Source: Anaerohalosphaeraceae bacterium
GTDB lineage: Bacteria > Planctomycetota > Phycisphaerae > Sedimentisphaerales > Anaerohalosphaeraceae
Direction of reading: 5' to 3'
Assembly: GCA_039679345.1 (NCBI GenBank)
Contig: JBDKVE010000298.1
Coordinates: forward strand, 3,221-67,220
Length of the DNA stretch: 64,000 bases
Shown here: positions 3,495 to 34,496 of the stretch, one piece after another
Layout: each line of letters opens with the position of its first letter
How positions within the stretch are numbered: the stretch's first letter is position 1
Notes under the pieces: generated by a model
What the model was told of the DNA's origin: nothing
The model's database searches: none
What the model saw: only the letters and a program-made list of their open reading frames with translations
Position numbers and translations under genes: made by a program

Positions 3495-3824
3495 ATGTTA
3501 TTTACGATCAGCGGCAGACACATTGAAATTACAGATGCGATTCGCGCCCACGCCAAAGAAAAAGTAGAGAAACTGCCTCGGTTTTTTAATCAGATTTCTC
3601 ATATTGAAGTCCTTGTGGACGCCAGCCAGGGCGGTTTTCCCGTAGTGGAAATCATTGCCCGGGCGGAGCATTTTGGGGATCTAGTAGCCAAGGAAACCGG
3701 GCCGGATGCCTATACCTGTATTGATATGGCGGTCCACAAACTTGAACGTCAAATAAAGAAGATTAAAGAAAAACAGCGTGATAATAAATTTACCCCGCCA
3801 ACTGAAGCCCCTACCGTTGAGTAG
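3495..3824 (+). CDS. hpf: Ribosome hibernation promoting factor (short HPF/RaiA family)
   Basis: 109 aa, MLFTISGRHIEITDAIRAHAKEKVEKL.. is the classic HPF N-terminus. SD aggagg lies 6 nt upstream. Confidence 0.9.
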   Translation: MLFTISGRHIEITDAIRAHAKEKVEKLPRFFNQISHIEVLVDASQGGFPVVEIIARAEHFGDLVAKETGPDAYTCIDMAVHKLERQIKKIKEKQRDNKFTPPTEAPTVE

Positions 3825-3950
3825 TCGTCGGCTGTTTGCGGTCAAAGAGAATGAATTAGAAGCTTCGAGCTTGACAACGTTGTCATTTTCGTTGCAGGGC
3901 GAGGTAAAACCCTGACAAGCAGAGCTGGTGATTTTGTTTGAGAGGACAAT

Positions 3951-4424
3951 ATGAAACTTTCGGATATTGTATGTTCAGATGCAATTGTGGCTCGTCTTAA
4001 ATCCAAGCAGCGTGATGAGGCGATTCGTGAGCTGGTTGGTGCTCTTGGCAAGACGGGAAAGATTCCGAAAGGTTCAGTGGATGCCCTAGCCAAGCTGGTG
4101 GTTAAACGTGAAAGCGAGGCCAGCACGGGAATCGGCAAAGGCGTTGCGGTCCCTCACGTTAAGAGCACTGATATCAAAGAACCCATCGCCGCCGTGGGAT
4201 GTTCTGCGGAGGGGATCGATTTTGCGTCGCTGGATAAACAACCGGTGTACAGTGTGATTTTACTGATCAGCCCGACGGACAATCCGGATCGGCATTTGCA
4301 GGCGATGGAAACCGTGTTTAAGAATCTGCAGAAAGATGATTTCCGACGGTTTCTGCGTCAGGCGCAGACATCCAAGGAAATTGTGGAAATTATCGCGGAT
4401 GCCGACGGCAACGGAATGGAATAA
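3951..4424 (+). CDS. ptsN: PTS EIIA(Ntr)-type regulatory protein
   Basis: 157 aa. STGIGKGVAVPHVK holds the phosphorylatable His. The fold pattern and the position next to hpf match PtsN. Confidence 0.85.
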   Translation: MKLSDIVCSDAIVARLKSKQRDEAIRELVGALGKTGKIPKGSVDALAKLVVKRESEASTGIGKGVAVPHVKSTDIKEPIAAVGCSAEGIDFASLDKQPVYSVILLISPTDNPDRHLQAMETVFKNLQKDDFRRFLRQAQTSKEIVEIIADADGNGME

Positions 4425-4481
4425 ACAAGTTACTGGGCTGGAAGCGATGGTGTCCGGTCGTGTTTAAAGGTAAAATCTCCG

Positions 4482-4796
4482 GTGAGCGAAGCGGTTCATG
4501 AGATAGAAGTGGAAATCAGAAATGCCGAAGGTATGCACATGCGGCCTGCGATGCAATTTGTGGATTTGGCGGGAAGCTTCAAATCCGACATTTCGGTCAG
4601 TAATGAGATGACGACGGCTGACGCGAAAAGCATCATGCAGATGACCATGCTGGCGGCAACCTGCGGTTCGAAGCTGCGTGTTCGTGCCAAAGGGCGTGAC
4701 GCCAAGGACGCACTGAACGCGATTCGTGAGCTGGTCGAGGAAAAATTGTTTGGAGAACCTCCGGGCGAGAAAACCGCCAGCGTGCAAAAGGGATAA
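4482..4796 (+). CDS. ptsH: HPr/NPr phosphocarrier protein
   Basis: 104 aa. NAEGMHMRPA is the His-15 motif and DAKSIMQM is the Ser-46-like motif. GTG start. Confidence 0.85.
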   Translation: MSEAVHEIEVEIRNAEGMHMRPAMQFVDLAGSFKSDISVSNEMTTADAKSIMQMTMLAATCGSKLRVRAKGRDAKDALNAIRELVEEKLFGEPPGEKTASVQKG

Positions 4797-4805
4797 AAAC
4801 AGGAT

Positions 4806-6542
4806 ATGGAAATCAGGAAGGGAATCGGAGTGTCACCGGGCATCGCGATAGCGCGATGTATGGTCATTGACTCGAAAGACTACCGGATTCCCCGCCGCAG
4901 TATTCTGGATTCCCAGCGGGTCAAGGAAATTCTTCGTGTCCGCCGGGCGTTTGCTTTTGCCATCAAAGATTTAACCGAGTTGAGTACCCGCAAGGATTTC
5001 GAGGAAGGCAAGATCAAGGATATCTTTGCCGTCCACATGCGGTTTTTACGCGACAAGTCATTTCGCAAGCGCATTACCGATTTTATTGACAAGGAACGGG
5101 TGACCGCCGAGTACGCGGTATCCACGATTCTTCGGGAGATTGCATCCCACTTTGAAGGGGTTGATGATCCTTATATCAGTGAACGCGCGGCCGATATTTA
5201 CGATATCGAAAAACGTCTGCTGGTGCGTCTGCTGGGCAAGGTCAAGGAAGAGGTGGAACATCTGCGGGAGGAAGTGGTTATTGTAGCGCACGACCTGACG
5301 CCGACACAGACGGCCAGTTTCAACCGGACGTTTGTCAAGGGATTTGCGACGGAAGCAGGCGGGCGGACCAGTCATACGGCGATTATTTCCAAGACGATGG
5401 GGATTCCGGCGGTGGTGGCGCTGGGGGATATGACCTCGGGGATTAATTCGGAAAGCCTTGTGATTATAGACGGCAACCGCGGCGTGGTGGTGGTTGATCC
5501 GGATGAAGAAACGCTCAAACAGTACCGTCATTACGCCCAGCAGGTCAGCCTGTTTGTGCATCAGCTTGACGAGTTGCGGGATAAACCGGCCGTGACGCGG
5601 GACGGGGTGAAGATTCAACTGCTGGGCAATATCGAATTTCCGGAAGAGTCGGCGGTGGTTCGGGATAAAGGCGGCGAGGGGATTGGCCTGTACCGGACGG
5701 AGTTTCTGTATTTATACGGCGGGGTGGAACCCACGGAAGAAGATCACTATCAGGCCTACGCGCAGGCGGTGAAGGTTTTTCCGCACGAACCGGTGGTGAT
5801 TCGCACGATGGACCTCGGTGCCGACAAGCTGCCGCAGACGATTCGTCAGATACCGGAGGCCAACCCGGTTCTGGGGCTGCGTTCCATCCGTTATTGCCTG
5901 CAGAACCTGGGATTATTCAAGACGCAGCTTCGCGCGATTCTACGGGCGTCGGTGCTGGGCGATGTACGGGTGATGTTTCCGCTGATTACCAATCTCCAGG
6001 AATTGCGCCAGGCGAAGATGATTCTTCGGGATGTGATGGAAGACCTTGACGAGTACGCGGCGCCTTATAATGCGAAGATGCCGGTGGGGATTATGATTGA
6101 GACGCCCAGTTCGGCGCTGACGTCGAATCACCTTGCGGCGGAAAGCGATTTCTTCAGTATCGGGACCAACGACCTGATTCAATATACGCTGGCGGTGGAC
6201 CGCGGCAATGAACATGTATCGACGCTGTTTTCGGCGGCAGAGCCTGCGATTGTGCGTATTCTGCGCAGTGTGATTCACGATGCGGGCAAGGCGGGCATCG
6301 GGCTGAGCATCTGCGGCGAGGTGGCGTCGGATCCGGAATATATCATGCTGCTGCTGGGGATGGGCGTGCGGACGCTGTCGCTGGCTCCGCCGATGATTCC
6401 GGAGATCAAGAAAGTCATTCGTTCAGTCAACATGGATGACTGTAATATGCTGGCCCGTCGTGTTGCGACGCTGGATTCCCAGCGGCAGATCAAGAATCTG
6501 CTGCGGGATGCCGCCTGTCAGATATTGCCGGACCAGTTTTAG
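4806..6542 (+). CDS. ptsI: Phosphoenolpyruvate-protein phosphotransferase (Enzyme I)
   Basis: 578 aa. GGRTSHTAIISKTMGIPAV is the active-site His region. The C-terminal PEP-utilising TIM barrel is marked by GLYRTEFLY and FFSIGTNDLIQYT. There is no N-terminal GAF domain. Confidence 0.95.
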   Translation: MEIRKGIGVSPGIAIARCMVIDSKDYRIPRRSILDSQRVKEILRVRRAFAFAIKDLTELSTRKDFEEGKIKDIFAVHMRFLRDKSFRKRITDFIDKERVTAEYAVSTILREIASHFEGVDDPYISERAADIYDIEKRLLVRLLGKVKEEVEHLREEVVIVAHDLTPTQTASFNRTFVKGFATEAGGRTSHTAIISKTMGIPAVVALGDMTSGINSESLVIIDGNRGVVVVDPDEETLKQYRHYAQQVSLFVHQLDELRDKPAVTRDGVKIQLLGNIEFPEESAVVRDKGGEGIGLYRTEFLYLYGGVEPTEEDHYQAYAQAVKVFPHEPVVIRTMDLGADKLPQTIRQIPEANPVLGLRSIRYCLQNLGLFKTQLRAILRASVLGDVRVMFPLITNLQELRQAKMILRDVMEDLDEYAAPYNAKMPVGIMIETPSSALTSNHLAAESDFFSIGTNDLIQYTLAVDRGNEHVSTLFSAAEPAIVRILRSVIHDAGKAGIGLSICGEVASDPEYIMLLLGMGVRTLSLAPPMIPEIKKVIRSVNMDDCNMLARRVATLDSQRQIKNLLRDAACQILPDQF

Positions 6543-6718
6543 GCAGTCCGATATCGGATTTGTCTGCGGCCCCGGTGCGGCCGATCAGATATCCGGACGG
6601 ACGACCGTTGAGAATAACGGGAGCCTTCCGGCTGGAAAACCGGGAGAGGATAACAAAATTCGGAAAGCTGGAGTATTGCCGCCGGGAGGCCGGACGGCGG
6701 TACTTCAGAAAAGGACAC

Positions 6719-7471
6719 ATGCAGCCGATTAAAACACTGTTACTTTATTTTTCAATAACAGGGGGGCCGAGCTATTTGTCGCAGCAGGAAACGCTGACGA
6801 TGTGGGGTCGGGCTCTGCTGCGAGCCGGGATTGAGCCGGCCTATTCCCTCGGATTTAATCCGCATCCCAGAATTTCTTTGCCGCTGCCGCGTTCGGTGGG
6901 TGTTGATGGCGACCAGGAACTGCTGACGGTTCAGACGGAGACCTTTGCCGGGACGGCCGAGGAGCTTCAGCGCTGCATCAACAGTCAGCTTCCGGAAGGC
7001 TGTGTCGTATTCGGCACGGAGATTCTGGAGGGCAAGGCACGTCGCTATCCGGGCAGCATTCTGTATCGCATTCACCCTGACACGTCCTGCTGGTCGTCCG
7101 CACTGGAATCGCGACTGGAGGCCTGCCGCACCCAAATCGAGACATCCAGCCGGGTAGAGATGGTGCGTCAGCGGCCCGGGGAGCGGGTGGGGCGAACGGT
7201 GGATATCGGGGGGTATCTGCAGGCGATATGCTGGGGTGACGGGGAGCTTTCGATACGCTGCCGGTTCAGCGGTCAGGGAACGGTACGAGTGGATGAATTG
7301 CTGGAGTGGGTGGGTCTGCGTCGTGAAGATTTGCCCCGGCCGATTCTGCGGACGGGGATTGAATGGCTGACAGCGAGCTGGCCGGGAGAGTCGGCCGGGC
7401 CGGAGGCGTCCGATGAGGATGCCGCGGCGCCGGAGACGGCTATGGATGGACAGGATGAGAGTAGAAACTAG
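6719..7471 (+). CDS. DUF2344 (TIGR03936) family protein, commonly linked to RNase E/G
   Basis: The homologous part begins at MQPIKTLLLYFSITGGPSYLSQQETLTMWGRALLRAGIEPAYSLGFNPHPRISL. The ORF-track start at 6560 adds an Arg/Pro-rich extension that overlaps the ptsI tail region and is probably not translated. Confidence 0.75.
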   Translation: MQPIKTLLLYFSITGGPSYLSQQETLTMWGRALLRAGIEPAYSLGFNPHPRISLPLPRSVGVDGDQELLTVQTETFAGTAEELQRCINSQLPEGCVVFGTEILEGKARRYPGSILYRIHPDTSCWSSALESRLEACRTQIETSSRVEMVRQRPGERVGRTVDIGGYLQAICWGDGELSIRCRFSGQGTVRVDELLEWVGLRREDLPRPILRTGIEWLTASWPGESAGPEASDEDAAAPETAMDGQDESRN

Positions 7472-7489
7472 TCAAAGACAGGGAGAACG

Positions 7490-9013
7490 ATGAATATTGA
7501 AATGCTAATTAATGTCAGCGAGGGCGAAGAGTCCCGCGTGGCGGTGGTTTGTGATAATGTGTTGGAAGAACTTCACATTGAACGGGCCGGAACGACCAGC
7601 CTTGTAGGCAATATCTACAAGGCCAAGGTGATGAATATCGAGCCGGCGATTCAGGCGGCGTTTATTGATTTTGGTGTGGTGAAGAACGGGTTTCTGCACC
7701 TCAGTGATCTGCACCCGCGGTATTATATAGGTCAGAAGGAGACGGAAGAACATATCGGGCGCCGCAAGAGTGTCACTCAGCGTCCGCTGATTCAGCGATG
7801 TCTGAAACGGGGACAGGATCTGATTGTGCAGGTCATCAAGGAAGGCATCAATACCAAGGGGCCGACGCTGACGACGTATCTGTCGCTGCCGGGCAAATAC
7901 ATGGTCCTGATGCCGTGGATGAATAATATCGGCGTGTCGCAGAAGATTGAAGACGAGGCGGAACGCAAACGGCTGCGCGAGGCGGCCAACGGATTAAAGC
8001 TGCCGGCCAATGCGGGGGTTATTATTCGTACCGCGGCGCTGACGGCGACCAAGCGGGACTTGCAGAATGATTTATCCTACCTGAGTCGGCTGTGGGGGGC
8101 GATTACCAAACGGATGGAAAAGGAAAAAGCCCCTGCGGAGATGTACCGGGAATCCGACCTGGTGCTGCGGACGGTACGCGATATCTTTGATACGCGGATA
8201 TCCAAGATTGTCTGTGATAATGATAATATTGCCAAGCAAATCCGGGACTTTGTGTCGATTGTTCAGCCGAAGCTGAAAAGCCGAGTGTCGTTTTATGATC
8301 AGAAAACGCCGCTGTTTCACAAGTATAATATTGAAAAAGAGATTGAAAATATTCAATCGAGCCGGGTGGAATTAAAATGCGGCGGGTCGCTGGTGATTGA
8401 ACAGACCGAAGCGATGGTGTCCATTGACGTTAACAGCGGCAAATACCGCAAGCCCGACAACGCTGAGCAGACGGCACTGAAGATTAACCAGGAAGCTGCC
8501 AAGGAGATTGTGCGGCAACTGAAGCTGCGGGATATGGGCGGGCTGATTGTCTGCGACTTTATCGATATGCGGGAAAATAAAAACAAGCAGGCGGTGGAGA
8601 GGATATTTCGGGATGAGTTGAAGACCGACCGGGCGCGGACGCGGGCGCTGAAGATGAGTGCTTTTGGCCTGATTGAACTGACGCGGCAGCGGCTGAGGCC
8701 GTCGCTGCAATCGAGTACGACGTATCGCTGTCCGCATTGCCGGGGCACGGGGTCGGTCAAGAGTCCGGCGGCTCAGTCCACCGAAATTCTGCGGTCGGTG
8801 CGCATGGCGCTGAGTCGTGAGGAAATCAAACGGGTCGAGGCGACGGTGGCTATGCCGGTGGCCGAATACCTGCTCAATCAGCGGCGCAGCAATCTGATGG
8901 ATATGGAAAAGGAATCGGGTGTGCAGATTGTGATTAAATCCGATTTTTCAGCGGGATCACAGAGTCTGCAGATGGTTTGTTATGATGAACGGGGCAGTGT
9001 CGTCAAGGTGTAA
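7490..9013 (+). CDS. rng: Ribonuclease G/E family endoribonuclease
   Basis: 507 aa. N-terminal S1 domain (VGNIYKAKVMNIEPAIQAAFIDFG), catalytic core (GGSLVIEQTEAMVSIDVNSG) and Zn-link CPHCRGTG. Confidence 0.92.
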   Translation: MNIEMLINVSEGEESRVAVVCDNVLEELHIERAGTTSLVGNIYKAKVMNIEPAIQAAFIDFGVVKNGFLHLSDLHPRYYIGQKETEEHIGRRKSVTQRPLIQRCLKRGQDLIVQVIKEGINTKGPTLTTYLSLPGKYMVLMPWMNNIGVSQKIEDEAERKRLREAANGLKLPANAGVIIRTAALTATKRDLQNDLSYLSRLWGAITKRMEKEKAPAEMYRESDLVLRTVRDIFDTRISKIVCDNDNIAKQIRDFVSIVQPKLKSRVSFYDQKTPLFHKYNIEKEIENIQSSRVELKCGGSLVIEQTEAMVSIDVNSGKYRKPDNAEQTALKINQEAAKEIVRQLKLRDMGGLIVCDFIDMRENKNKQAVERIFRDELKTDRARTRALKMSAFGLIELTRQRLRPSLQSSTTYRCPHCRGTGSVKSPAAQSTEILRSVRMALSREEIKRVEATVAMPVAEYLLNQRRSNLMDMEKESGVQIVIKSDFSAGSQSLQMVCYDERGSVVKV

Positions 9014-9047: not shown

Positions 9048-10025
9048 ATGTTTGATTTAGAATATGCAAAGATGGTGTTGCGGGCGGAGGCGGCGGGGGT
9101 GGCTTCGCTGGAGCAGATTGTCGAACAGCCCGCGTTTGAGAAGGCTTGCCGGATGATCCTGGATTGCACGGGGTCGGTGATTGTGACCGGCGTGGGCAAG
9201 GCGGGGATCATCGGCAATAAAATCAGCGGGACCCTGGCCTCGACGGGAACGCCGAGCCATTTTCTGCACCCGACGGAAGCGGTGCATGGCGACCTGGGAC
9301 GGGTTCAGCGAAATGATATTGTGCTGGGACTGAGCCACAGCGGCAGCAGCGATGAGATTCTGCGATTGATTGAGCCGCTCAAACAGCGGGAAATACGCCT
9401 GCTGTCGATTGTCGGTGACAGTCAGAGCCGGCTGGCCAAACACAGTGATGTGGCATTATGCATGGGCAAGCTGACGGAGGCCTGTCCGCTGGGGCTGGCA
9501 CCGAGTGTTTCGACGACCTGTATGCTGGCGCTGGGGGATTCGCTGGCGCTGACGGTGATGAAGGCCCGGCAGTTCAGCACCGAAGAATATGCCCGGTTCC
9601 ATCCGGCCGGGGCCCTGGGGGCCAAACTGATTACAGTCGGCCAGACGATGTGGTTCAAGCCCGGTGAAACACTGCCGCTGGTCAAAGGCGGGCAGACGGT
9701 CCAGCAGATGCTGGATATCACCAGCCAGCAGAAACGACATGGGGCCGTGATGGTTATCAATGGCAATGGACAACTGGCTGGGATTGTCACCGACGGCGAT
9801 TTGCGGCGGGCGATGACGCGATTCGGCCGGGATGTATTCGGCAAACGTGCGGAAGAGATTATGACGGCCGGCTGCAAGCGGGTGCGGGAAGATACGCTGG
9901 CGGCGGAGGCGATGGCGATATTTCACCGGTACCGGATTGATGAACTGCCGGTGGTGGACGGTGACGATCGGCCGATTGGGTTGATTGACGTTCAGGATAT
10001 TGTTGCGATTAAAATTGTGGGATAG
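9048..10025 (+). CDS. kdsD: Arabinose-5-phosphate isomerase (SIS + tandem CBS)
   Basis: 325 aa. SIS motif VTGVGKAGIIGNKISGTLASTGTPS, plus a C-terminal CBS pair. Confidence 0.92.
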   Translation: MFDLEYAKMVLRAEAAGVASLEQIVEQPAFEKACRMILDCTGSVIVTGVGKAGIIGNKISGTLASTGTPSHFLHPTEAVHGDLGRVQRNDIVLGLSHSGSSDEILRLIEPLKQREIRLLSIVGDSQSRLAKHSDVALCMGKLTEACPLGLAPSVSTTCMLALGDSLALTVMKARQFSTEEYARFHPAGALGAKLITVGQTMWFKPGETLPLVKGGQTVQQMLDITSQQKRHGAVMVINGNGQLAGIVTDGDLRRAMTRFGRDVFGKRAEEIMTAGCKRVREDTLAAEAMAIFHRYRIDELPVVDGDDRPIGLIDVQDIVAIKIVG

Positions 10026-10043: not shown

Positions 10044-10568
10044 ATGTGTGCAGAACAGGCGGATTTGGGCCGGATTCAACTGCTGATTATGGATGTCGAC
10101 GGGGTCTTGACCGACGGCGGCATTATCATTCATTCGGATGGCTCGGAAAGCAAACGGTTCAATGTGCTGGACGGCCAGCGGGTGACGCTGTGGCATCGGG
10201 CGGGACTGGACAGCGCCATTCTCAGCGGACGCGAGACGGCGGCGACGACGGTGCGGGCCGAACAGCTTGGGATTAAGTATGTGCTGCAGGGCTGCAAGCA
10301 GAAACTGCCGGCTTTTGAGCAATTGCTGAAGGATACGGGATATACGCCGGAGCAGGTGGCTTATATCGGCGATGACTGGCTGGATTTGCCGCTGCTGCGG
10401 CGGGTGGGGTTTGCGGCGGTTCCGGCGCAGGGTGTCGAAGAGATCAAGCCGTATGCCCATTATGTGACGCGGGCTGCCGGGGGGGATGGGGCGGTGGCGG
10501 AGGTGATTGAATATCTCCTGCGTCAGACCGGGCGATGGGAGCAATTGATTGAGCGGTATCTGGTATAA
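10044..10568 (+). CDS. kdsC: KDO-8-phosphate phosphatase (HAD-IIIA)
   Basis: 174 aa. LLIMDVDGVLTDG is HAD motif I and AYIGDDWLDLP is motif IV. It immediately follows kdsD. Confidence 0.9.
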   Translation: MCAEQADLGRIQLLIMDVDGVLTDGGIIIHSDGSESKRFNVLDGQRVTLWHRAGLDSAILSGRETAATTVRAEQLGIKYVLQGCKQKLPAFEQLLKDTGYTPEQVAYIGDDWLDLPLLRRVGFAAVPAQGVEEIKPYAHYVTRAAGGDGAVAEVIEYLLRQTGRWEQLIERYLV

Positions 10569-10583: not shown

Positions 10584-13544
10584 ATGGTGCGAAAGATGAT
10601 TATCGGCATAACGGCTTTGGTCGTTGTGGCGTTATTGTTTATGGGGTATCTGCAACTGACAGAAACCAAGGGGGTGAAGACTGCCGATGAATCGTCCGTG
10701 CAGGCGATTCCTGATCAGCCTGTTGATCCGCAGGCGCGGCAGATTGACCAGACGAAAATCATTGGAGTCAATCAGGCGCGTTATACGATCATGGATCCGC
10801 AGACGCGTCAGATTCGGCGTATTTTTGGCTTTGAGAAACTTGTCAATCCCGGCACGCAGTCCAATAACTGGCAGGTTCTAAAGCCGTATATGTATGTGTT
10901 CGAAGACCGGTTTCGGTGCCGGATGGATGCCGATAAGGGGGATATTCAGGTGGAAGACAGCGGCAGTACGCCGATTCCGCAGGATGCCCAGTTAACCGGC
11001 AAGGTGGTTATCCGGCTGCTTCCGGTCGAAGGTCAGAAGTTTACCGAGACGGTGATTCTGCTGGATGATTTGAATTACAGCAGCGAGCGGTCGGAGTTTT
11101 TTACCAACGGGCCGGTGGAACTGATTTCGGCACAGGCCCGGCTGGTGGGCAAAGGGATGCTGATGATGCATAACCCGGCCAACGGGCGGATTGAATATTT
11201 TCAGATTAAGGATCTGGAGTATCTGCGGCTGAAAAATGCGGTGTCGTCGAAATTGTTCGGCAGCGCTTCCGACGACCCGGCGGGGAAAGCCGATACCGGG
11301 ACAGCGAAGACGGAAAACGGTGATAAGCCTGCTCCTGTCAAGCGGGTCAGCCCGGACACAAAAGCTGTGGCCGGCACAGCACAGACAGAACCCAACAGTG
11401 CCGATTTGACGATGCCTCCATTGTTGTATCAATGTGCGCTGCACGATAATGTTGAGATTCAGTATGCCAAACAGGCGATCATCAAAGGGGCGCAGGAAAT
11501 AACGATTCTGAATATGCTGTTTGGGCCGCAGCCCGGCGGCGAGGCGTCCGGCGACACTACGGCGTCGCAGGATGCCGCGGCGACGGCTGAACCTGAGCCT
11601 TTAGCGGTTCAATCGCCGGGAACCCTGCTGGAAGGCGAATTGCCGTGGGAGCAGCGGACCAAACTGCCGGACGTCCCGGCCGATGATGATACGACCGATG
11701 TGATTGTGACCTGCGACGGCGGGATTGTGGTCAAGCCGATGGATAGTTTGTATGATGGAACGACGGCGGTTTCACTGGATGTGCAGGTGACCGGCAAGCC
11801 GCTACTGATTCAGCGGCTGGATGCCGCGGCCGGCCAGACGCCCTATACGATGGTGCAGTGCCAGAGTCTGCAATATACTCCCTCGCAGGATGTGCTGAAG
11901 CTGTTTGTCGGCGAATTTGAAAAAACGGTGCGGCTGAACATGAATGCCGAGGGCGGGTATCTGGAGACGACGGGCAATGTGCTGTGGGACCGCAAGAGCA
12001 GTTATGCGCTGGTGGATGGGCCGGGCAAGATGGTGCTTGAGCCTGTCGCCGACAAGGCGGAACCTACTGCAGGTTCAGGGACGGCTTCGCTTTCCGGGCC
12101 GGCACAGGTGACATTCGGACAAAAGATGGATGTATTTTTTGCCGAGGCGCCGCAATCGGCACAAGGCGAGATAGCCCTTGCCGCGGTCAACCTGGCCGGC
12201 GGGATGAAGGCGGTGATGAAAAACAGTTCGACGCTTCGGACACAGGCCGAATCAGCCCGGCTGGAATTCAATCCGGGCAACCAGCTTGCCCGCGTGGAAC
12301 TCAATGGCGATGTGCAGTTTGCTTCGGAAGCGGAACAAGGCAAATCTCAGGCGCAGTCGGATAATGCCGTGCTGAGCTTTGCGGCGGAAAATACCCTGAC
12401 GACGGCGGATTTCAAGGGCCATGTGGCGTTTGATTCCGAGCAGGGGACGTTTACCTCCGGCGATGCGAAGATTCAATTTGCCAAAAACGAGTCGGGACAG
12501 CTTGAGCCGGTGGCGCTGACCAGTACGACTGAGGCTGTGATGGTCAGCAAATCCACCGATGCCGAGCAGAAAACGGCACGATTTGAAGCCCAGCGGATTG
12601 ATTATGAACTGTCCAAAGGGTCGGCGGTGGCCCAGGGGCCGGTGGTGTTCAGCTTCTTTACGCCCGCCGATGCCAATGATCCGGGCTCGAGTCTGCCGGT
12701 GACGATCACAGCCCAGAAGAATGCGGAATTTATTACGGGGTCGGGCAAGAGCATTCGACAGGTGGTCTTTAACGGCAATGTGATTGGCGACGCCACCGAG
12801 GAAAAGCCGCAGGAAAAGACGATTCGGCGATTCTTTGGAGACAAGCTGACGGTGGACCTGGGAACAGATACCGACGGCCGGACGACGATCAGCCATGTTG
12901 CTGTGACCGACGGCAATGTACGCCTTGAGGCGCGGCGGTTTTTGCAGGAGGCACTGGTCAGTCATGTGAAATTGAGCTGTCAGCGGTTTGATTATGAACA
13001 TGCGGCGCGGCTGGTTGCTGCGGCAGGGCCTGGCAAAATCGAATTGAATAATCAGGACGTGGCAGCCGACCCCAATACCGAGGCGGGGTCGCTGGATTTG
13101 CGGCAGCCGTGCTATGCCCTGGTGGAAGGATTTAAGATGCTGACCTGGAAGATTCCGGAACAGCAAATCGTCGCCGCCGGCGGGGACAAGTCGCTATCGC
13201 TGGGATATATCACGATGAAAGACGGCAACCCGGACAAGGTGACCAAGGCTCAGTCGATGCATACGACATTGCAGCTTGCCAAAGATGCCACGAAGCGAAC
13301 GGTCCTGAGCGAATTGCTGGCTGAAGGTGGGATTTATCTGGAGCAGGTTGGCCAGCATGTTCTTGCGGGGCAGAAGCTGAGATATACCGGCGCGGATGGC
13401 TGGGTGCATATCGAAGGTAATGATGTTCAGCCCTGTTTTGTGGATGGCGTCAAAGTGCCGGTTGTGGATTACAACTTGCAGACGGGCCAGTTGAAGACCC
13501 AGCTTAGTACCTCGCCGGGAGCGATACCTGTTTCCCCCAAATAG
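10584..13544 (+). CDS. Membrane-anchored periplasmic protein with repeated OstA/LptA/LptC-like modules
   Basis: 986 aa. One N-terminal TM helix (IIGITALVVVALLFMGYLQL). Repeated strand patterns of the OstA type: ARLEFNPGNQLARVELNGDVQF, AVLSFAAENTLTTADFKGHVAF, VVFNGNVIG, ISHVAVTDGNVRLEA. It occupies the lptC-lptA slot directly after kdsD-kdsC. Confidence 0.55.
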   Translation: MVRKMIIGITALVVVALLFMGYLQLTETKGVKTADESSVQAIPDQPVDPQARQIDQTKIIGVNQARYTIMDPQTRQIRRIFGFEKLVNPGTQSNNWQVLKPYMYVFEDRFRCRMDADKGDIQVEDSGSTPIPQDAQLTGKVVIRLLPVEGQKFTETVILLDDLNYSSERSEFFTNGPVELISAQARLVGKGMLMMHNPANGRIEYFQIKDLEYLRLKNAVSSKLFGSASDDPAGKADTGTAKTENGDKPAPVKRVSPDTKAVAGTAQTEPNSADLTMPPLLYQCALHDNVEIQYAKQAIIKGAQEITILNMLFGPQPGGEASGDTTASQDAAATAEPEPLAVQSPGTLLEGELPWEQRTKLPDVPADDDTTDVIVTCDGGIVVKPMDSLYDGTTAVSLDVQVTGKPLLIQRLDAAAGQTPYTMVQCQSLQYTPSQDVLKLFVGEFEKTVRLNMNAEGGYLETTGNVLWDRKSSYALVDGPGKMVLEPVADKAEPTAGSGTASLSGPAQVTFGQKMDVFFAEAPQSAQGEIALAAVNLAGGMKAVMKNSSTLRTQAESARLEFNPGNQLARVELNGDVQFASEAEQGKSQAQSDNAVLSFAAENTLTTADFKGHVAFDSEQGTFTSGDAKIQFAKNESGQLEPVALTSTTEAVMVSKSTDAEQKTARFEAQRIDYELSKGSAVAQGPVVFSFFTPADANDPGSSLPVTITAQKNAEFITGSGKSIRQVVFNGNVIGDATEEKPQEKTIRRFFGDKLTVDLGTDTDGRTTISHVAVTDGNVRLEARRFLQEALVSHVKLSCQRFDYEHAARLVAAAGPGKIELNNQDVAADPNTEAGSLDLRQPCYALVEGFKMLTWKIPEQQIVAAGGDKSLSLGYITMKDGNPDKVTKAQSMHTTLQLAKDATKRTVLSELLAEGGIYLEQVGQHVLAGQKLRYTGADGWVHIEGNDVQPCFVDGVKVPVVDYNLQTGQLKTQLSTSPGAIPVSPK

Positions 13545-13577: not shown

Positions 13578-13619
13578 TAAAAACCCCCGGTTCGGAATCG
13601 AATCGGGGGTTTTCTTTTG
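13578..13619. terminator. Bidirectional hairpin terminator between convergent genes
   Basis: Stem acccccg (13583..13589) pairs with cgggggt (13604..13610). It is flanked by aataaaa upstream and ttttctttt downstream. Confidence 0.75.
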
Positions 13620-13636: not shown

Positions 13637-15910
13637 TTATTTCTGTTCCACCAGTTCCATAATGCCGGCATCGATAAACTGACCGCCGCTGGTTTGCTTG
13701 CAATAGATGGCCAGGGTATTGGCGCCTTTTTTGAGGGCCTTTGACGCGGTTTCGGGCAGCATTACGGTATCATATTCACCTGTAAAGTCGGACAGTTCGG
13801 CGACCAGGGTGCCGTTGATATACACTTTGGCATCTTCGTCATGATGGATCGTTAGGGCGATATCGCCTTTGGGTGCATCCTTCAACTCAAAGGTTCTGCG
13901 GAGCCAGATTTCGCCGGTTTTCCATTCGGTGCCGACGACGGCGCCCGGAGTACCCTGTGTGCCAAAGCCGCCTTTGCCGGCGGTCCAGGCTGCATCATTA
14001 AATTGCGGCTGGAACCAGTTTTCAGCGGGGGCGGCGGTGGTGTATTTCCATGACTGAGCCTGCGTCTGAGAAGACGGCACGAGGGGCTGGACTTTGGGCA
14101 TGGGCAGATAAAGTTTCTTATGGGCCTTAATCAGGCTGGGCTTGTCCATCTTGAAGACTGCCCGGTCATAGGTCAGCAGGCCGTTGACTTCGACTTCCAC
14201 GTCGGAGGTCTGGGTATAAACGGCGGCGCTGAGGCCGGCGGCAATCAGGGGCCGCAGCATAGCCATCTGGTTCAGATAAGCGGTGGTCAGTTCCGCTTCA
14301 CTCTTGTAGCTGCGATAACCCCAGTTCTTTTCATCCTGCCAGGTGTGGCCTGGCAGCGGCAGACCCAGTCCGCCGAATTCGCCAAGCACCACGGCGCGGG
14401 CTTCTTCGACTTTGGGCATGGACGGCGCGGGGTAATGATGCATGTCATTGACATGGCCGACGCCGCGGTCTGACCAGCCGCTGGCATTATTGACCAGGCG
14501 GGTGGGATCGAGTTCTTCGGTCCATTTGACGATACGGGCCGTATCGAACTGGCCCCAGCCTTCGTTGAACGGAACCCACATCACGATAGAAGGAGAATTG
14601 TACAGGGCATTGATAATATTCTTCCATTCGGTTTCATAAATGGCGATGGATTCGGGTGTTCGTGTGATATCCGGATCGTTGGGGCCGATATAGCGGTCAC
14701 CGCTGGGCATATCCTGCCAGACGATAATACCGAGTTTGTCGCACCAGTAGTACAGACGTGCCGGTTCGGTCTTGACGTGCTTGCGGAGCATGTTCATGCC
14801 GAGTTCCTTGAGGATTTCCACGTCAGACTTCAGGGCCTCGTCGGTGGGGGCGGTATAAAGACCATCCGGCCACCAGCCCTGATCGAGCGGGCCGTACTGG
14901 AAGAGGAACTGATTGTTGAACATGACGCGGGTGATACCTTTTTCGTCTTTACCGAGGCTGATTTTACGCATCCCGAAATACGAATCCACGGAATCAACGA
15001 CCTTGCCGTTTTTCTCGATACGGACGGTCAGGTCATACAGGAACGGGCTGTCCGGGGACCAGAGTTTGGGATTCTTGACATCCAGCGTCAGAGTGCTGTT
15101 TGTGGAAGCGGCAGAGGCGGCAAAACCTTTGGCTTTGGATTCGATGGCATACGAGAGGCCCTGTGTATCACCGGCGGCATTGACCTGGACGGTTACTTTC
15201 TGTGCGTCCACATCGGGAGTCAGCTTGATGCTGCTGATATAAGTTTTGGCCACGGGTTCAGCCCAGACGGTCTGCCAGATACCGGTGACCGAGGTGTACC
15301 AGATGCCGTGCGGATTGTTAATCTGTTTGCCGCGGGGCTGAGTGCCTTTGTCGGTGGGATCCCAGACGCCCACGACGAGGGTCTGCGGGCCGGTGGGCTT
15401 CAGCGCGGAGGTGATATCAAAGAAGAACGGGTCATATCCGCCTTTGTGGCTTCCGACGAGTGTGCCGTTGACAAAGACTTCGCATTGCCAATCGACAGCA
15501 CCAAAATGCAGCAGGATGTTTTTGTCTTTCCATCCGGCCGGAGCGGTGAAGGTTCTGTGGTACCAGAGTTTATTGTCGGCTCCGACGGTCTTGCCGACGC
15601 CGGACAGGGCGGATTCAATGGCAAAGGGCACCAGAATCTGACCATCATATTGCTGAGGTTGTTGGGCGTCTTTGCTGACAATGGCATAATCCCATAAACC
15701 GTTGAGGTTTGTCCAGTCTTCGCGAACCATTTGAGGCCGCGGATATTCGGGCAGGACTTTATCCGGATTTACTTTTTTAGCCCAGGGGGACATGATTTTG
15801 CCTTCGACGGGCTTCCATGCGGTCTGAGCGGCCTGACAAGAAGTTGACAGACAGCAAATGGCTGCCAGCGTCAGGCACGACCAGACGGTGTTGCTTTTTA
15901 GATTGACCAT
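13637..15910 (-). CDS. Glycoside hydrolase family 2 (beta-galactosidase/beta-glucuronidase-like) with extra C-terminal jelly-roll module
   Basis: 757 aa with a signal peptide. LHFGAVDWQCEVFVNGTLVGSHKGGYDPFFFDIT is the GH2 sugar-binding domain. NMLRKHVK..WQDMP and VMWVPFNEGWGQ are the TIM-barrel acid/base region. Confidence 0.85.
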   Translation of the reverse strand: MVNLKSNTVWSCLTLAAICCLSTSCQAAQTAWKPVEGKIMSPWAKKVNPDKVLPEYPRPQMVREDWTNLNGLWDYAIVSKDAQQPQQYDGQILVPFAIESALSGVGKTVGADNKLWYHRTFTAPAGWKDKNILLHFGAVDWQCEVFVNGTLVGSHKGGYDPFFFDITSALKPTGPQTLVVGVWDPTDKGTQPRGKQINNPHGIWYTSVTGIWQTVWAEPVAKTYISSIKLTPDVDAQKVTVQVNAAGDTQGLSYAIESKAKGFAASAASTNSTLTLDVKNPKLWSPDSPFLYDLTVRIEKNGKVVDSVDSYFGMRKISLGKDEKGITRVMFNNQFLFQYGPLDQGWWPDGLYTAPTDEALKSDVEILKELGMNMLRKHVKTEPARLYYWCDKLGIIVWQDMPSGDRYIGPNDPDITRTPESIAIYETEWKNIINALYNSPSIVMWVPFNEGWGQFDTARIVKWTEELDPTRLVNNASGWSDRGVGHVNDMHHYPAPSMPKVEEARAVVLGEFGGLGLPLPGHTWQDEKNWGYRSYKSEAELTTAYLNQMAMLRPLIAAGLSAAVYTQTSDVEVEVNGLLTYDRAVFKMDKPSLIKAHKKLYLPMPKVQPLVPSSQTQAQSWKYTTAAPAENWFQPQFNDAAWTAGKGGFGTQGTPGAVVGTEWKTGEIWLRRTFELKDAPKGDIALTIHHDEDAKVYINGTLVAELSDFTGEYDTVMLPETASKALKKGANTLAIYCKQTSGGQFIDAGIMELVEQK

Positions 15911-16233
15911 AATACTCTCCTGAAAAAAATTAGTTTTCTATACCCAACGGGTATGATTATTCCGCGAGCAAAAGAAACAAGTGGTTGATGCCACTGTACT
16001 TAGCCGCGCCGAAACTGAAAATTTTAAATAGCAACAGAATAATAATACTCCGATTTTCGTTGCTGGGTTACATCTAAAGTTCCTATTTTACCATCAGCCC
16101 TGTGCCTATATAGATGCATTATTTTATACACAGGAAACAAGAAAAACTTACTATTATTTTATACGAATTGCGGATGTTAAGATAGGGAGAGTTTGCATTT
16201 CAATTAAATATCAAAAAATGATAAATTAAAATG

Positions 16234-16275
16234 AAAAAAGCACACATGGCTCCCTTGCAGGAAACCCTGTGTGCT
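16234..16275 (-). terminator. Rho-independent terminator of the GH78-like gene
   Basis: agcacaca (16239..16246) pairs with tgtgtgct (16268..16275). The A-run 16234..16239 is a T-run on the minus strand. Confidence 0.65.
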
Positions 16276-16304
16276 TCAAGGCAATCACATGATGCAACCG
16301 GATT

Positions 16305-18731
16305 TTATTTATCGGTAGTGCTGCCTGCCGCACCAGGAACGGGCAACTGAATTTTCTGATGGCCCGGATGCAGCTCAACGGATTGTTTGTTCCAGAGGAA
16401 TGTGCCGGTCAGATTTCCGGGCAAGGTGATTTGGGCTTCGATTCCTGTGATGCCTTTCCGCTGGAGGTGGACCTGGATTTGTCCCTGCGGATGCGGCATG
16501 GTTCCTTTGGCCCAGGTCAGCGGCCCCAGAGCCGGGGCAATCCTGACGGATTGGAAACCGGGCTTGGCCGGTTCGATGCCGCAGATGGTTGCCAGAAAAT
16601 CATAATTGGGGCTGGCGCTCCATGCGTGGCAGTCAGAACGGGTTGGTTCCGGCCGTTCGGCAAAGGTAGTCAGGCCCATGGCCAGCATGTCCCGCCAAGG
16701 CTGAAGCTGGGCGACATATTGTTCAGCAAGGCCTGCTTTCTTCATTGCCCGAATCAGGTAATATCGGTAATAGAAGGTACATTGAATCAGGCTCTTGTCG
16801 TCGGCCACCCGCTGAATAAACTCCGCCTGTTTTTCAGGGGGAACCAGATCTGTCAGAACCGCCATCACATTGGCGTGCTGGCTGAAAGCCTTTTTCTCAG
16901 GCGTATCGGCAAACAGCTTTCGATTCTCATCCCAACACAGACGCTGTGTGGCCTGCTTGAGCGATTCGGCCATGGCGCGGTATTTTTGAGCGGTATTGCT
17001 GTCCTGGAAAGCATCCATCAGGTCGGCGGCCTGAGCGAGGGTATAAGCCAATTGCAGTGTGATAATCGTGCTGTTGCCGTTTTCGGCTCCATCAGGGACT
17101 CCCCCGATATTAGCCTTGGTTGTCCATGCCCAGCTATCGGGCCAGTCCACGAAATTCCACCATTCCATCGGCCCCAGCATACCGTTGGCGTCAATGCGTC
17201 GCTTGTACCAGTCCAGCACGCCTCGTACTCCGATATCAAAGGATTGCACAAAGGCCGGGTCATCCACGTGCATCCAGTAATCATGGAGCATCGAAATCCA
17301 GAACAGGGAAAAGGTGGGAATCACCTGGGGCATGGACGTCGGATAGCGGCTGGAAGTCAGGCCGTCGGGGGTTCTTGAGTCATTGAAAAGCTGGATGGCA
17401 TTGCGCATGAGGCGGTCATCGCCGGCGACATAAAGAGAAATAAGAGATTGAATGCGAGTGTCGCCGACATACTGGAGCTGCTCGTAATAAGGGCAGTCGA
17501 AATACGTTTCGCCGGCGCAGAGCCGGGCCGTACGCCAGCCAACCTGCCAGATCGCATCCAGCGAGGAATCGCTGCAAGCAAAGGATGCTTTTTCCTGGAA
17601 GGGGTAGGCAGTGAAAATGCCCTGGAATTTTTCGAGGGTCAGCGGGTCTTTATCGGTGGTGATATCCAATTGGAGGTATCGCCAGGTGCGGAGCCATAAG
17701 GGGCGAAACAGGCGGTTGGTCCCGCCGTCGGCGGTAAATATATCAAAATATCCGATGATTTGTCGGCCTTCAATGGAATCCCGATTGCCTTTCTCGAATT
17801 TCTCATCCACCAATGCTTCCGCGTAGGTCAATTTTATCGTTGCCTCTTTGCCGCCGGAGACAGACAGTTCCGGATACCCCATTGTAAGATGGGTCTGATC
17901 CAGAAGGATGGAAACGGTTTTATTCGCCGGAATGGTCAGGGGCCGGCTGTCTTTGATAAAATCATCCGTGGCTTGGATATCCTGACAGCGGGCAATGCGT
18001 CCGAGGGAGTGCGGCGTCGATTCCATGACAGGGATGGTGCGAGGGATCAGCAGCCAGTGGGTGTTGGCATCATGCAGGCCGCGGGGGGCCGCACGTTCGA
18101 CGACTCGTGCCTGTGGCCAGTCTGAATCGTCAAAGTCAATTTCCTGCCAGCCCCAGGGATATTTTGCCCCATCGACCTGTTCGCCGGGGCCTACGGCCAC
18201 AAACGCCCGCAAGGACGTATCATGCACTTGAATCATGGAATAGGCCGGATTATGATAGACTTTCCATTCGGTGTTGGTGTTGACCTGTTTGGAAATCGCG
18301 TCATTACCCTGAAGCAGGAAGCCGGTATGATAGGAAATCTGCGCCCACGGTTTATCGTCGGCATAGTTCCAGACCACGGCGGCTAATACATTGGCGCCCG
18401 GTTTAAGGTGAGGGGCGAGATCCACGGTCTCGTAACGCCAGTGCCATAAATCGCCGCGTGCCGGGCCCTCACTGATCGGATTGCCGTTAATGAATAACCG
18501 GTACCGGTTGTCTGCGGACACATGCACAATGAATGAGTCGGGCTTTTTGTCGAGTTGAAATGATTTGCGAAAATGATACACACCAAACTCATGCACCGAG
18601 AGGGTGGGGTGAGCAATCCACTGTGCGGACCACGGCTGTTTGAGCAGGGTCGGGTTGATTGGGTCTTTCGCTGTTGCGGTACTGAACCCTGCCAGAGTGA
18701 CGGACAGGACAATCATCAATCGTTTGATCAT
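16305..18731 (-). CDS. GH78-like alpha-L-rhamnosidase family protein
   Basis: 808 aa with a signal peptide. N-terminal jelly roll (YHFRKSFQLD..VSADNRYRLFINGNPI). The six-hairpin region ETYFDCPYYEQLQYVGDTRIQ resembles the rhamnosidase catalytic domain. Confidence 0.6.
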   Translation of the reverse strand: MIKRLMIVLSVTLAGFSTATAKDPINPTLLKQPWSAQWIAHPTLSVHEFGVYHFRKSFQLDKKPDSFIVHVSADNRYRLFINGNPISEGPARGDLWHWRYETVDLAPHLKPGANVLAAVVWNYADDKPWAQISYHTGFLLQGNDAISKQVNTNTEWKVYHNPAYSMIQVHDTSLRAFVAVGPGEQVDGAKYPWGWQEIDFDDSDWPQARVVERAAPRGLHDANTHWLLIPRTIPVMESTPHSLGRIARCQDIQATDDFIKDSRPLTIPANKTVSILLDQTHLTMGYPELSVSGGKEATIKLTYAEALVDEKFEKGNRDSIEGRQIIGYFDIFTADGGTNRLFRPLWLRTWRYLQLDITTDKDPLTLEKFQGIFTAYPFQEKASFACSDSSLDAIWQVGWRTARLCAGETYFDCPYYEQLQYVGDTRIQSLISLYVAGDDRLMRNAIQLFNDSRTPDGLTSSRYPTSMPQVIPTFSLFWISMLHDYWMHVDDPAFVQSFDIGVRGVLDWYKRRIDANGMLGPMEWWNFVDWPDSWAWTTKANIGGVPDGAENGNSTIITLQLAYTLAQAADLMDAFQDSNTAQKYRAMAESLKQATQRLCWDENRKLFADTPEKKAFSQHANVMAVLTDLVPPEKQAEFIQRVADDKSLIQCTFYYRYYLIRAMKKAGLAEQYVAQLQPWRDMLAMGLTTFAERPEPTRSDCHAWSASPNYDFLATICGIEPAKPGFQSVRIAPALGPLTWAKGTMPHPQGQIQVHLQRKGITGIEAQITLPGNLTGTFLWNKQSVELHPGHQKIQLPVPGAAGSTTDK

Positions 18732-31592: not shown

Positions 31593-32228
31593 ATGAAGAT
31601 CAGGAAATGGTTCATTGTGGGGGTAATGGTTGCGCTGGCAGACTTCGCAAGTGCGTCGGTGACTTATGGATTTTACAACATCACAAACAACAATCCCGAT
31701 GTCGCAGGACAACTTTCGGTTGTATTGGAAGACATTGGGTCAGGTAAGGTTCAGTTTAAGTTTCTCAATGTTGGAATTGTTCAATCTGCGATTGATGCTG
31801 TTTACTTTGATGATCTCGACACTCCCATCCTGACGCCTTTTTTAGTGGTTGACAAAGATAATTATGGGGATACTTCAGTAGATTTTGAATTTGGTACGGC
31901 CAGTCCGCCTAATCTTCCAGGGTGGAATACGGTTAATCCCGATTTTGCAGCTGTAGCTATTGAATCTGCAGGTGCAGTTAAGAATAGTGATCGTGTCTAT
32001 CCGAGTAACTGGCTGGGAATTGTATTCACAGCTTCATATGACAACGTTGTATCTAGCTTAAATGATAAATCACTTCGGATCGGCCTGCATGTGCAATCTA
32101 TAGGTACATCTGGTGGTAGCGATTCTTTTGTCAATAATACTTGCCCAGTTCCCGCCCCCGGTGCAATTCTGCTGGCAGCCATGGGAACGGGGTTGGTGGG
32201 TTATCTGAGACGCCGGACGGTGATTTAA
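31593..32228 (+). CDS. PEP-CTERM-anchored secreted protein (family X)
   Basis: 211 aa with a signal peptide. The C-terminus is CPVPAPGAILLAAMGTGLVGYLRRRTVI. SD gggag. Internal motif LRIGLHVQSIGTSGGSDSF. Confidence 0.85.
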   Translation: MKIRKWFIVGVMVALADFASASVTYGFYNITNNNPDVAGQLSVVLEDIGSGKVQFKFLNVGIVQSAIDAVYFDDLDTPILTPFLVVDKDNYGDTSVDFEFGTASPPNLPGWNTVNPDFAAVAIESAGAVKNSDRVYPSNWLGIVFTASYDNVVSSLNDKSLRIGLHVQSIGTSGGSDSFVNNTCPVPAPGAILLAAMGTGLVGYLRRRTVI

Positions 32229-32254
32229 ATCCAATTATCGAGTCTCTTTTTGAA

Positions 32255-32287
32255 GCCGCGGGACGGAGTGAGCCTGCGGCTTTTTTT
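32255..32287 (+). terminator. Terminator after family X gene
   Basis: gccgcggg pairs with cctgcggc, followed by ttttttt. Confidence 0.75.
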
Positions 32288-32540
32288 ATGCGCACAACGT
32301 AGCCATGTGGGGGTATTTGTTAGCGTTGGATTAATTTTCGCAGAAAATTGAATGGCAGCCTTCAATTGCAAGTTTGCAGCATTCGCTGGATGAAGAGGTT
32401 TTGTGCAGGAATTGTTAAGAGTTGTTAATTTGCAGAAAATAGTGATTTCAATCAGAACTTTCCAAACACCGCAAATGTAGTTGGCTTTATGTAAATTCAA
32501 ACGGACATCAATCAGGTTCAGACTTTTTCTGAAATAACTG

Positions 32541-32569
32541 TTGACAATATAGGACCTGTAAGGTAGAAA
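32541..32569 (+). promoter_or_regulatory. Sigma70-like promoter for A1
   Basis: TTGACA (32541..32546), 17 nt, TAGAAA (32564..32569). Confidence 0.45.
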
Positions 32570-32619
32570 AGTTCGAGTTTATGGAGAAACCTGGAGAAAA
32601 CTGTTTAGGAGAAACAACG

Positions 32620-33261
32620 ATGAGTATGAAACAATTGGTGACTATTTTTACATTAACATTGATGGCCGGAGCGGTTTATGCGGCCCCCACAAAAATTAAA
32701 GCCATTGCCGATGGCGCTCCGTTGAGCCCGGCTTATGAATTCATGGTGACAAACGGAACGCTTGGAATTTATAGTGCACCTCAAAGTTTCAGAACTTTTT
32801 GTCTTGAAGCGGGTGAAACCTTTACCAATGGTGTGACTTACTTTGCCGTAATCAATACGGCGGCGGTCAAGGGCGGTACCGGCAGTTCGGACCCGCTTGA
32901 CCCGCGGACAGCGTATCTGTACACGCAGTATATGGCCGGAGCCTATGGCTACGGTTTTGATACCGAAAATGCTCTGCAGGAAGTCATTCATTACATCGAA
33001 GGCGAACGTTCAGCACTGTCGACCGACGAGGTTTGGTCGGAAAAAGCAGAAACATACCTGAAATATGCAAATAAAAGCGGCTGGACAACCATTGGCAATG
33101 TCCGCGTAGTCAATCTGTGGACCAATTATGATGAGAAGACAAATACCTTCAGCGGTTTTGCCCAGGATCAACTGGTTCTGGTTCCCGCGCCGGGAGCGCT
33201 GCTGCTGGCTTCCATTGGAATGGCTATCGTAGGTGGCTTAAGACGTCGTCAGTCAGTTTAG
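32620..33261 (+). CDS. PEP-CTERM-anchored secreted protein, family A (A1), single conserved Cys
   Basis: The start is taken at MSMKQLV (SD aggaga). Signal peptide; RTFCLEAGETFTNGVTYFAVIN; YLYTQYMAG; ALQEVIHYIEGE; tail FAQDQLVLVPAPGALLLASIGMAIVGGLRRRQSV. Paralog of 35767..36441. Confidence 0.85.
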   Translation: MSMKQLVTIFTLTLMAGAVYAAPTKIKAIADGAPLSPAYEFMVTNGTLGIYSAPQSFRTFCLEAGETFTNGVTYFAVINTAAVKGGTGSSDPLDPRTAYLYTQYMAGAYGYGFDTENALQEVIHYIEGERSALSTDEVWSEKAETYLKYANKSGWTTIGNVRVVNLWTNYDEKTNTFSGFAQDQLVLVPAPGALLLASIGMAIVGGLRRRQSV

Positions 33262-33283
33262 TTTTGTTTATCTTGTTTTTCAA

Positions 33284-34485: not shown

Positions 34486-34496
34486 GATACTTATGT

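Follow-up and report, generated by a model that had tools for sequence, protein, structure and literature searches.

The window analysed here, 64,000 nucleotides from an Anaerohalosphaeraceae bacterium (assembly GCA_039679345.1, contig JBDKVE010000298.1, positions 3,221 to 67,220), encodes at 10584..13544 (+) a protein of 986 amino acids (aa) that is probably a homologue of LptC to which LptA-like modules have been added covalently, forming most or all of the periplasmic bridge for lipopolysaccharide (LPS). Sequence profiles and structure models support the identification of the gene product as an inner-membrane-anchored member of the LptC family with about five periplasmic modules (M1 to M5; Table 1), not one jellyroll. 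The open reading frame (ORF) begins with ATG 15 nt after the kdsC stop codon, is preceded by a ribosome-binding site (AAGGA, 9-13 nt 5' of the start) and includes its stop codon in the coordinates given. A chance origin is excluded by the number of homologues (40 with E <= 1e-65, the genomes of 74 species, and 369 cluster representatives with E <= 1e-30), and we therefore treat it as a real gene. Where existing annotation names its relatives, it calls them 'hypothetical protein'.

The LptC-like nature of the N-terminal part is supported by both profile and structure. M1 matches the Pfam family LptC (PF06835) with 27.8 bits (cut-off 21; aa 48-194), and this family is matched at E <= 0.01 in 33 of 40 close and 34 of 52 diverse relatives. 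The full-length protein was modelled with AlphaFold2 from a 40-sequence alignment (mean predicted local distance difference test, pLDDT, 76; predicted template modelling score, pTM, 0.61). Searched against the PDB with Foldseek, this model retrieved the LptC chains 6mjp_C, 6mit_C and 4b54_B at probability 1.00, with a root-mean-square deviation (rmsd) of 3.3 Å over 137 columns for 6mit_C. The N-terminal transmembrane anchor proposed in a first-pass annotation of this DNA is borne out, since it is modelled as a helix and contains the sole hydrophobic segment of the protein (residues 5-23); R3, I7 and Y22 are nearly invariant in the family alignment. No lipobox or signal-peptidase motif was found at the anchor, and no secretion or sorting signal in the protein. 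In proteobacteria, lptC lies directly after kdsD-kdsC. The gene shares this position with LptC (E. coli YrbK), as well as the single N-terminal anchor followed by a periplasmic jellyroll that matches the profile and solved structures. It differs from LptC, a small single-domain protein of ~190 aa, in being about five times longer (986 aa, with family members of 643-1116 aa) and in having four more jellyroll-type modules and two long disordered tethers. It also lacks lptA-lptB after the gene and falls below the NCBIfam equivalog cut-off.

The full model also matched LptA (2r19, 2r1a), LptH (4uu4) and full-length LptD at probability 1.00. Because all these Lpt matches could stem from M1, we repeated the search with a second model, comprising residues 278-986 alone (pLDDT 81.5, pTM 0.73). 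Without M1, LptA and LptH (4uu4) were still matched at probability 1.00 with TM-scores of 0.58-0.69 (2r19_A, 0.61; 2r1a_E, 0.69, rmsd 4.8 Å over 162 columns), and full-length LptD at probability 0.99. The retained LptA match indicates that the extension itself contains LptA-type jellyroll structure. Consensus sequences, emitted from module hidden Markov models (HMMs) built on 145 cluster representatives, point the same way. The M3 consensus matches LptD_N (PF03968) with 22.7 bits (E 1.2e-4; cut-off 20.4), and the M4 consensus matches LptC with 23.1 bits (cut-off 21) and LptD_N with 16.9 bits, below the cut-off of 20.4. The joined M3 and M4 consensus reaches 30.2 bits for LptC (cut-off 21) and, in four stretches, 30.1 bits for LptD_N (cut-off 20.4). 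Among the 92 members scanned (40 close and 52 diverse), no Pfam family other than LptC and LptD_N recurs.

The extension is also internally repetitive. When the family profile was compared with itself using hhalign, residues 666-970 aligned to 439-862 (probability 97%, E 8e-11). The C-terminal unit of M2 repeats the start of M4, and M5 is a repeat of M4, so that M2 and M5 are both linked to M4 by a significant internal repeat. M4 opens with 'RFEAQRIDYELSKGSAVAQGPVVFSF', akin to the LptA motif 'MHYELAKDFVVLTGNAYL', and a repeated motif of the protein, 'IDYELSKGSAVAQGPVVF', resembles 'MHYELAKDFVVLTGNAYL' of E. coli LptA (the query sequence used for LptA was checked to be 100% identical to 2R19_A). 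The OstA-like strand motifs quoted in the first-pass annotation fall within these repeated units, and the jellyrolls it had anticipated were found by Foldseek and by profiles; they amount to about five modules.

Boundaries of M2 to M5 were set from strand pattern, linkers and homology. In the AlphaFold model, residues 373-972 make up a nearly uninterrupted all-beta body, and strands of the extension are up to 18 residues long. The model of residues 278-986 is more confident than the full-length model, which suggests that M2 to M5 may form one stiff unit. The Ala/Thr/Pro/Asp-rich linkers described earlier proved to be real, as residues 223-279, 315-372 and 488-506 combine low pLDDT with poor conservation. 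Mean column conservation is 0.55 in the transmembrane anchor, 0.62 in M1, 0.56 in M4 and 0.54 in M5, and the beta-hairpin is likewise well conserved; the corresponding values are 0.31-0.34 in M2 and M3 and 0.16-0.30 in the linkers. Conserved ends and a variable middle fit docking ends joined by a spacer. The hairpin holds the invariant residues Y282, C284 and V290, and the invariant C284 and C377 flank the disordered loop.

Six cysteines (C112, C284, C377, C799, C843 and C951) are conserved in the family; apart from the invariant C284 and C377, they occur in 33-38 of 40 members. The pairs C284-C377 and C799-C843 flank loops that they may well close; the co-occurrence patterns of cysteines in 106 relatives gave no clear disulfide pairing.

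Table 1. Coordinates of the multi-module LptC-family gene, the parts of its product, and the neighbouring features of the operon (positions in the window)
Feature	Position	Strand	Remarks
hpf	3495-3824	+	upstream of the multi-module gene
ptsN (PTS EIIA-Ntr-like)	3951-4424	+	
HPr	4482-4796	+	
PtsI	4806-6542	+	
DUF2344 protein, then RNase G	between PtsI and kdsD	+	
kdsD (arabinose-5-phosphate isomerase)	9048-10025	+	Pfam SIS+CBS; two genes 5' of the multi-module gene, same operon
kdsC (Kdo-8-phosphate phosphatase)	10044-10568	+	TIGR01670, 154 bits (cut-off 107)
multi-module LptC-family gene	10584..13544	+	last gene of the kdsD-kdsC operon
transmembrane anchor	10587..10658	+	residues 2-25; AlphaFold helix
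module M1	10722..11249	+	residues 47-222; LptC-type beta-jellyroll; most conserved part
disordered linker 1	11250..11420	+	residues 223-279; Ala/Pro/Thr/Lys/Asp-rich; pLDDT ~25; conservation 0.25
conserved beta-hairpin	11421..11525	+	residues 280-314; strands 280-294 and 298-312; pLDDT 85-90
disordered loop	11526..11699	+	residues 315-372; Pro/Ala/Asp/Thr-rich; pLDDT < 50
module M2	11700..12044	+	residues 373-487; ten strands (AlphaFold)
module M3	12102..12560	+	residues 507-659; LptA/LptD_N-like; restricted to long family forms
module M4	12561..13067	+	residues 660-828; conserved Lpt-type jellyroll module
module M5	13095..13508	+	residues 838-975; conserved C-terminal beta module; pLDDT 85-93
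intrinsic terminator	13580-13613	+	15-pair stem with 8 G-C, then T-run; operon end
glycoside hydrolase family 2 (GH2) gene	13637-15910	-	convergent; next after the multi-module gene

The family is large, and the 74 species genomes all appear to be of Phycisphaerae/Sedimentisphaerales type. A first search returned the 40 homologues mentioned above (573-996 aa, the shortest apparently truncated), all from metagenomes or metagenome-assembled genomes (MAGs), and those with names belong to Sedimentisphaerales or Planctomycetota. HMMER was run exhaustively against 1.84 billion cluster representatives and gave 1331 matches at E <= 1e-3, the 369 at E <= 1e-30 being 50%-cluster representatives; the best 150 all have E < 1e-169 and lengths of 643-1116 aa. 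The 74 species were found by scanning one genome per GTDB species. Their informative record titles read Phycisphaerae, Sedimentisphaerales, Anaerohalosphaeraceae or Planctomycetota; many others are titled 'uncultured Pirellulales', and two are MAGs of Gimesia maris or Blastopirellula marina, labels that we suspect to be imprecise. Identity to the nearest relatives, among them the isolate 'Anaerohalosphaeraceae bacterium U12dextr', is 81-87%. Anaerohalosphaeraceae are placed in the Sedimentisphaerales, Phycisphaerae, Planctomycetota.

The gene is tied to genes for 3-deoxy-D-manno-octulosonic acid (Kdo) metabolism. We compared 79 loci, the window and 78 related ones (1.3 Mb in all). In 72 of the 74 with enough upstream DNA, the gene is immediately preceded by kdsC in the same orientation, and in the other two kdsC lies within ~300 nt. 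In the window, kdsD matches NCBIfam KpsF/GutQ (TIGR00393) with 271 bits against a cut-off of 203.7. The operon of kdsD, kdsC and the multi-module gene is kept down to 26-30% identity, and the longer synteny LPG-synthase-hpf-ptsN-HPr-ptsI-DUF2344-RNaseG-kdsD-kdsC-multi-module gene down to ~27-30%. The downstream gene varies among loci and is convergent in three relatives examined.

Every one of the 79 loci carries exactly one gene of this modular type (in L042 and L062 it is divided into two ORFs), and no further ORF with any of the modules was found in them. Likewise, no LptB-like ATPase adjoins the gene in any of these loci. BLAST with an E. coli LptB query found only one generic ATP-binding cassette (ABC) ATPase, 5.5 kb away in a single locus. 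Within the 64-kb window, family profile scans of the ORFs gave no Lpt-family match besides this ORF, nor did the module HMMs match any other. The earlier statements on the neighbourhood agree with these results: hpf, ptsN and HPr do lie 4-7 kb upstream (3495-4796, +), a single gene follows kdsD-kdsC before the strong terminator and the convergent GH2 gene (the terminator lying between the two genes), and neither lptA nor lptB follows, here or in the 78 related loci.

The order hpf, ptsN, HPr, ptsI, DUF2344, RNase G (3495-9013, +) before kdsD-kdsC is kept across the clade. In proteobacteria, rpoN and lptB flank genes of the nitrogen phosphotransferase system (PTS) type; neither gene is in this PTS-kds cluster.

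Family members keep the same ends and differ in the middle, which acts like a set of cassettes, with forms of four to six modules. More than half of the 106 members have M1-M2-M4-M5 (57/106; 633-854 aa, mostly ~660-780 aa). One additional partial M4-like copy is present in 15 (793-925 aa) and two additional copies in 1 (894 aa). The form found in the window, with M3, accounts for 22 (~946-996 aa), and M3 together with a partial M3 duplicate for a further 7, or 8 when a variant with an extra weak M2-like match is included (883-1040 aa). M3 is present in 31 of 105 relatives and missing from the ~660-780-aa forms. On a neighbour-joining tree built on the shared modules, the presence of M3 requires at least seven changes and the number of M4 copies at least four, and the immediate sister group of the clade that includes the window (749-759 aa) is without M3. 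The repeated gain and loss of central modules accounts for the range of family lengths, 643-1116 aa.

Apparent short forms did not hold up. A 398-aa ORF in L052 (CP070806.1, 10001-11197), considered as a short unfused form, is cut short where the sequence is masked with N and was rejected. Judging from coordinates, three loci with M1 only (L021, L068 and L073) and two with incomplete genes (L047 and L064) apparently reflect contig ends or frameshifts and not separate architectures. The two-ORF loci L042 (9986-12195) and L062 (3732-5968) have overlapping ORFs that apparently stem from a frameshift or assembly error and represent no real short form.

Several observations weigh against an LptC extended by LptA-like modules into a bridge. 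The native protein scores 17.3 bits for LptD_N, below the threshold of 20.4, and PF03968 is matched at E < 0.01 in 2 of the 40 and 3 of the 52 members. The scans of module consensus sequences gave no Pfam match for M2 or M5 on their own, and comparison of the module profiles with the E. coli LptA sequence by hhalign gave nothing significant. For the NCBIfam LptC equivalog (TIGR04409) the protein reaches 25.7 bits against a cut-off of 38, which makes it a member of the LptC family and not a certified equivalog. The top Foldseek E-values belong to Rhs/teneurin beta-shells; these have TM-scores of ~0.05 and probabilities of 0.4-0.8, and we dismissed them as generic long beta-sheets. C112 in M1 and C951 in M5 are conserved without obvious partners, and if they do pair with each other, the chain would be folded back on itself. 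Finally, about 60 disordered residues join M1 to the rest, and a groove continuous from M1 to M2, like the docking of M1 on the hairpin and M2, is for this reason only assumed.

Three further sequence searches were uninformative. The whole-family profile found nothing relevant among PDB sequences at E <= 10 with HMMER, nor did phmmer with the M3 and M4 consensus against the PDB. With E. coli LptA as the query, the homologues retrieved were all enterobacterial (>= 84% identity), and no useful LptA profile could be obtained from them.

E. coli LptA units stack head-to-tail as a bridge. The extension shares with LptA and LptH (PF03968; 2R19, 2R1A, 4UU4) the fold, the profile matches of the M3 and M4 consensus and a recurring strand motif, 'x-D-Y-x(6-8)-A/L-x-G-N/P-V'. 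LptA is soluble, has a cleaved signal peptide and assembles non-covalently, whereas these modules are part of a membrane-anchored polypeptide without a signal peptide, in which covalent bonds connect them to one another and to LptC; their native sequence is below threshold on PF03968 and their strands are longer. With the N-terminal jellyroll of LptD the protein has in common the fold family and PF03968 (full-length LptD chains at probability 0.99-1.00), but it lacks the C-terminal 26-strand barrel and is anchored in the inner, not the outer, membrane.

An organism with such an LptC could still encode a separate LptA elsewhere that completes the bridge, in which case the extra modules would lengthen or stabilise the part near the inner membrane or play an accessory role, for instance in crossing the peptidoglycan or regulating bridge assembly. 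Since lpt genes are generally unclustered outside proteobacteria (PMC8871954), the missing adjacent lptA says little here, and M5, without a profile match of its own, may also be read in this way. However, the extension is LptA-like in fold and comprises about four LptA-sized modules, and four units already match the bridge commonly cited in E. coli models (10.1101/2023.04.28.538765). The C-terminal modules are, moreover, as conserved as M1, as a docking end would be. We therefore consider a separate LptA unlikely. More distant still is the idea that the protein carries another cargo, such as a phospholipid or another glycolipid, and owes its resemblance to Lpt proteins to beta-sheet grooves shared with AsmA-like transporters. 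It has the general plan of the AsmA-like proteins (TamB, YhdP, YdbH) and of VPS13, ATG2 and LPD-3/BLTP1, namely one membrane-anchored polypeptide with a long beta-sheet groove between membranes. Foldseek listed the bridge-like lipid transfer protein LPD-3 (9cap; probability 0.66), and around aa 492-653 there is a sub-threshold match to Pfam YdbH-like (16-17 bits against 26.3), seen also in one of the 40 members. None of the 52 further representatives has this match, though, and the M3 consensus, which covers the same region, passes the threshold for LptD_N but not for YdbH. AsmA, AsmA_2, TamB (DUF490) and DUF3971 are matched in 0 of 92 members, whereas LptC is matched in 67 of 92. With no significant profile match to these proteins, an Lpt-jellyroll fold that matches LptA, LptH and LptC structures at probability 1.00, and linkage to the Kdo/LPS genes kdsD-kdsC, we regard such a transporter as improbable.

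Repetitive beta modules, low-complexity linkers, a variable number of repeats and the leading Foldseek E-values of the Rhs/teneurin shells could also describe a periplasmic structural or adhesin-like repeat protein that has no part in transport and contains an LptC-like domain incidentally. The shell matches are of negligible TM-score and low probability, however, and the gene occurs as one copy per locus in a conserved operon for LPS precursors. Its product has an inner-membrane anchor, no secretion or sorting signal, and profile matches to Lpt families only, which together make a structural role very improbable.

For the preferred reading, an LptC extended into a bridge, we propose a mechanism by analogy with the organisation of the E. 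coli Lpt bridge (PMC7347655). The transmembrane helix and M1 would dock on the ABC transporter LptB2FG, as LptC does, and a flexible tether would lead from M1 to the conserved hairpin and then to M2-M5. LPS, once extracted from the inner membrane, would be driven through the hydrophobic groove that M1 to M5 form in series, and the conserved last module, M5, would make an edge-to-edge contact with the LptD N-terminal jellyroll. In this scheme the LptC polypeptide would itself include the LptA part of the bridge, at a set number of modules, with M3 and the extra M4-like copies serving as spacer cassettes whose number differs among relatives. We likewise infer the binding of LptB2FG and LptD, LPS as the cargo, the dispensability of a separate LptA and a role as the sole bridge. 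LptD was found in all planctomycete genomes searched by Speth et al. (2012, PMC3422733), an analysis whose scope did not extend to LptA and LptC, and the planctomycete periplasm has been reported as enlarged (PMC12673574). The suggestion in the first-pass annotation that one such chain could span an unusually wide periplasm is a good hypothesis.

Other genes of the window concern the making and breaking of glycans. A cluster at 49854-61497 (+) encodes two UDP-glucose/GDP-mannose dehydrogenases, a GDP-mannose 4,6-dehydratase, several epimerases, a GFO/IDH/MocA oxidoreductase, a hexapeptide acyltransferase and a DegT aminotransferase, and looks like a precursor locus for O-antigen or surface polysaccharide. 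Genes for glycan degradation are numerous, lying at 13637-18731 (-) and at 28492-31068 and 37932-47869 (+); they encode GH2, a GH78 rhamnosidase, a glutaminase-A-like six-hairpin protein, a sulfatase and an alpha-galactosidase with an NPCBM domain. Such a wealth of these genes is typical of polysaccharide-degrading Phycisphaerae. Six tandem, paralogous-looking ORFs of 211-276 aa, ~300-350 bp apart, occupy 31593-37453 (+), where GC content is low, at 0.42-0.47 compared with 0.50-0.57 elsewhere. A weak PEP-CTERM sorting motif (highest score 22.1 bits; cut-off 20.7) stands at the end of five of them, and the array is followed at 37932-41483 by a gene for an 1183-aa protein with glycoside-hydrolase, Laminin_G_3 and F5_F8 domains. 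GC skew is positive in nearly all 2-kb bins with a steadily rising cumulative skew (1-64000), and between 21 and 64 kb the plus strand carries most of the long ORFs; the two together suggest a position of the window inside a single replichore whose leading strand is plus.

In the literature on fused or multi-jellyroll LptC-LptA proteins and on Lpt systems in Planctomycetes and Phycisphaerae, we found no description of this architecture. Its components are all of known kinds, and the new element is their covalent arrangement in variable number. The number of LptA copies in the E. coli bridge is still debated (PMC7347655), and in a modelling study each LptA accounts for ~35 Å, one to five copies corresponding to 185-325 Å between the membranes (10.1101/2023.04.28.538765). 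By extrapolation, if each module here also contributed ~35 Å, three, four and at least five extension modules would correspond to ~260, 290 and at least 325 Å. We tentatively raise the possibility, short of an even chance in our judgement, that one LptC-derived chain makes up the entire bridge between LptB2FG and LptD in Sedimentisphaerales-type Phycisphaerae, without free LptA, and that the number of cassettes (4-6 or more, with at least ~10 gains or losses) determines how long the bridge is and follows periplasm width. If true, the question of how many LptA units make a bridge would have a natural answer written into the genome.

Recognition of the family corrects the annotation 'hypothetical protein' for hundreds of members. 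LptA-like units that are fixed covalently yet vary in number among close relatives would offer a natural experiment on bridge stoichiometry, on the matching of bridge length to envelope geometry and on LPS export in planctomycetes, and a bridge made of a single chain would lend itself to structural studies of a complete Lpt conduit.

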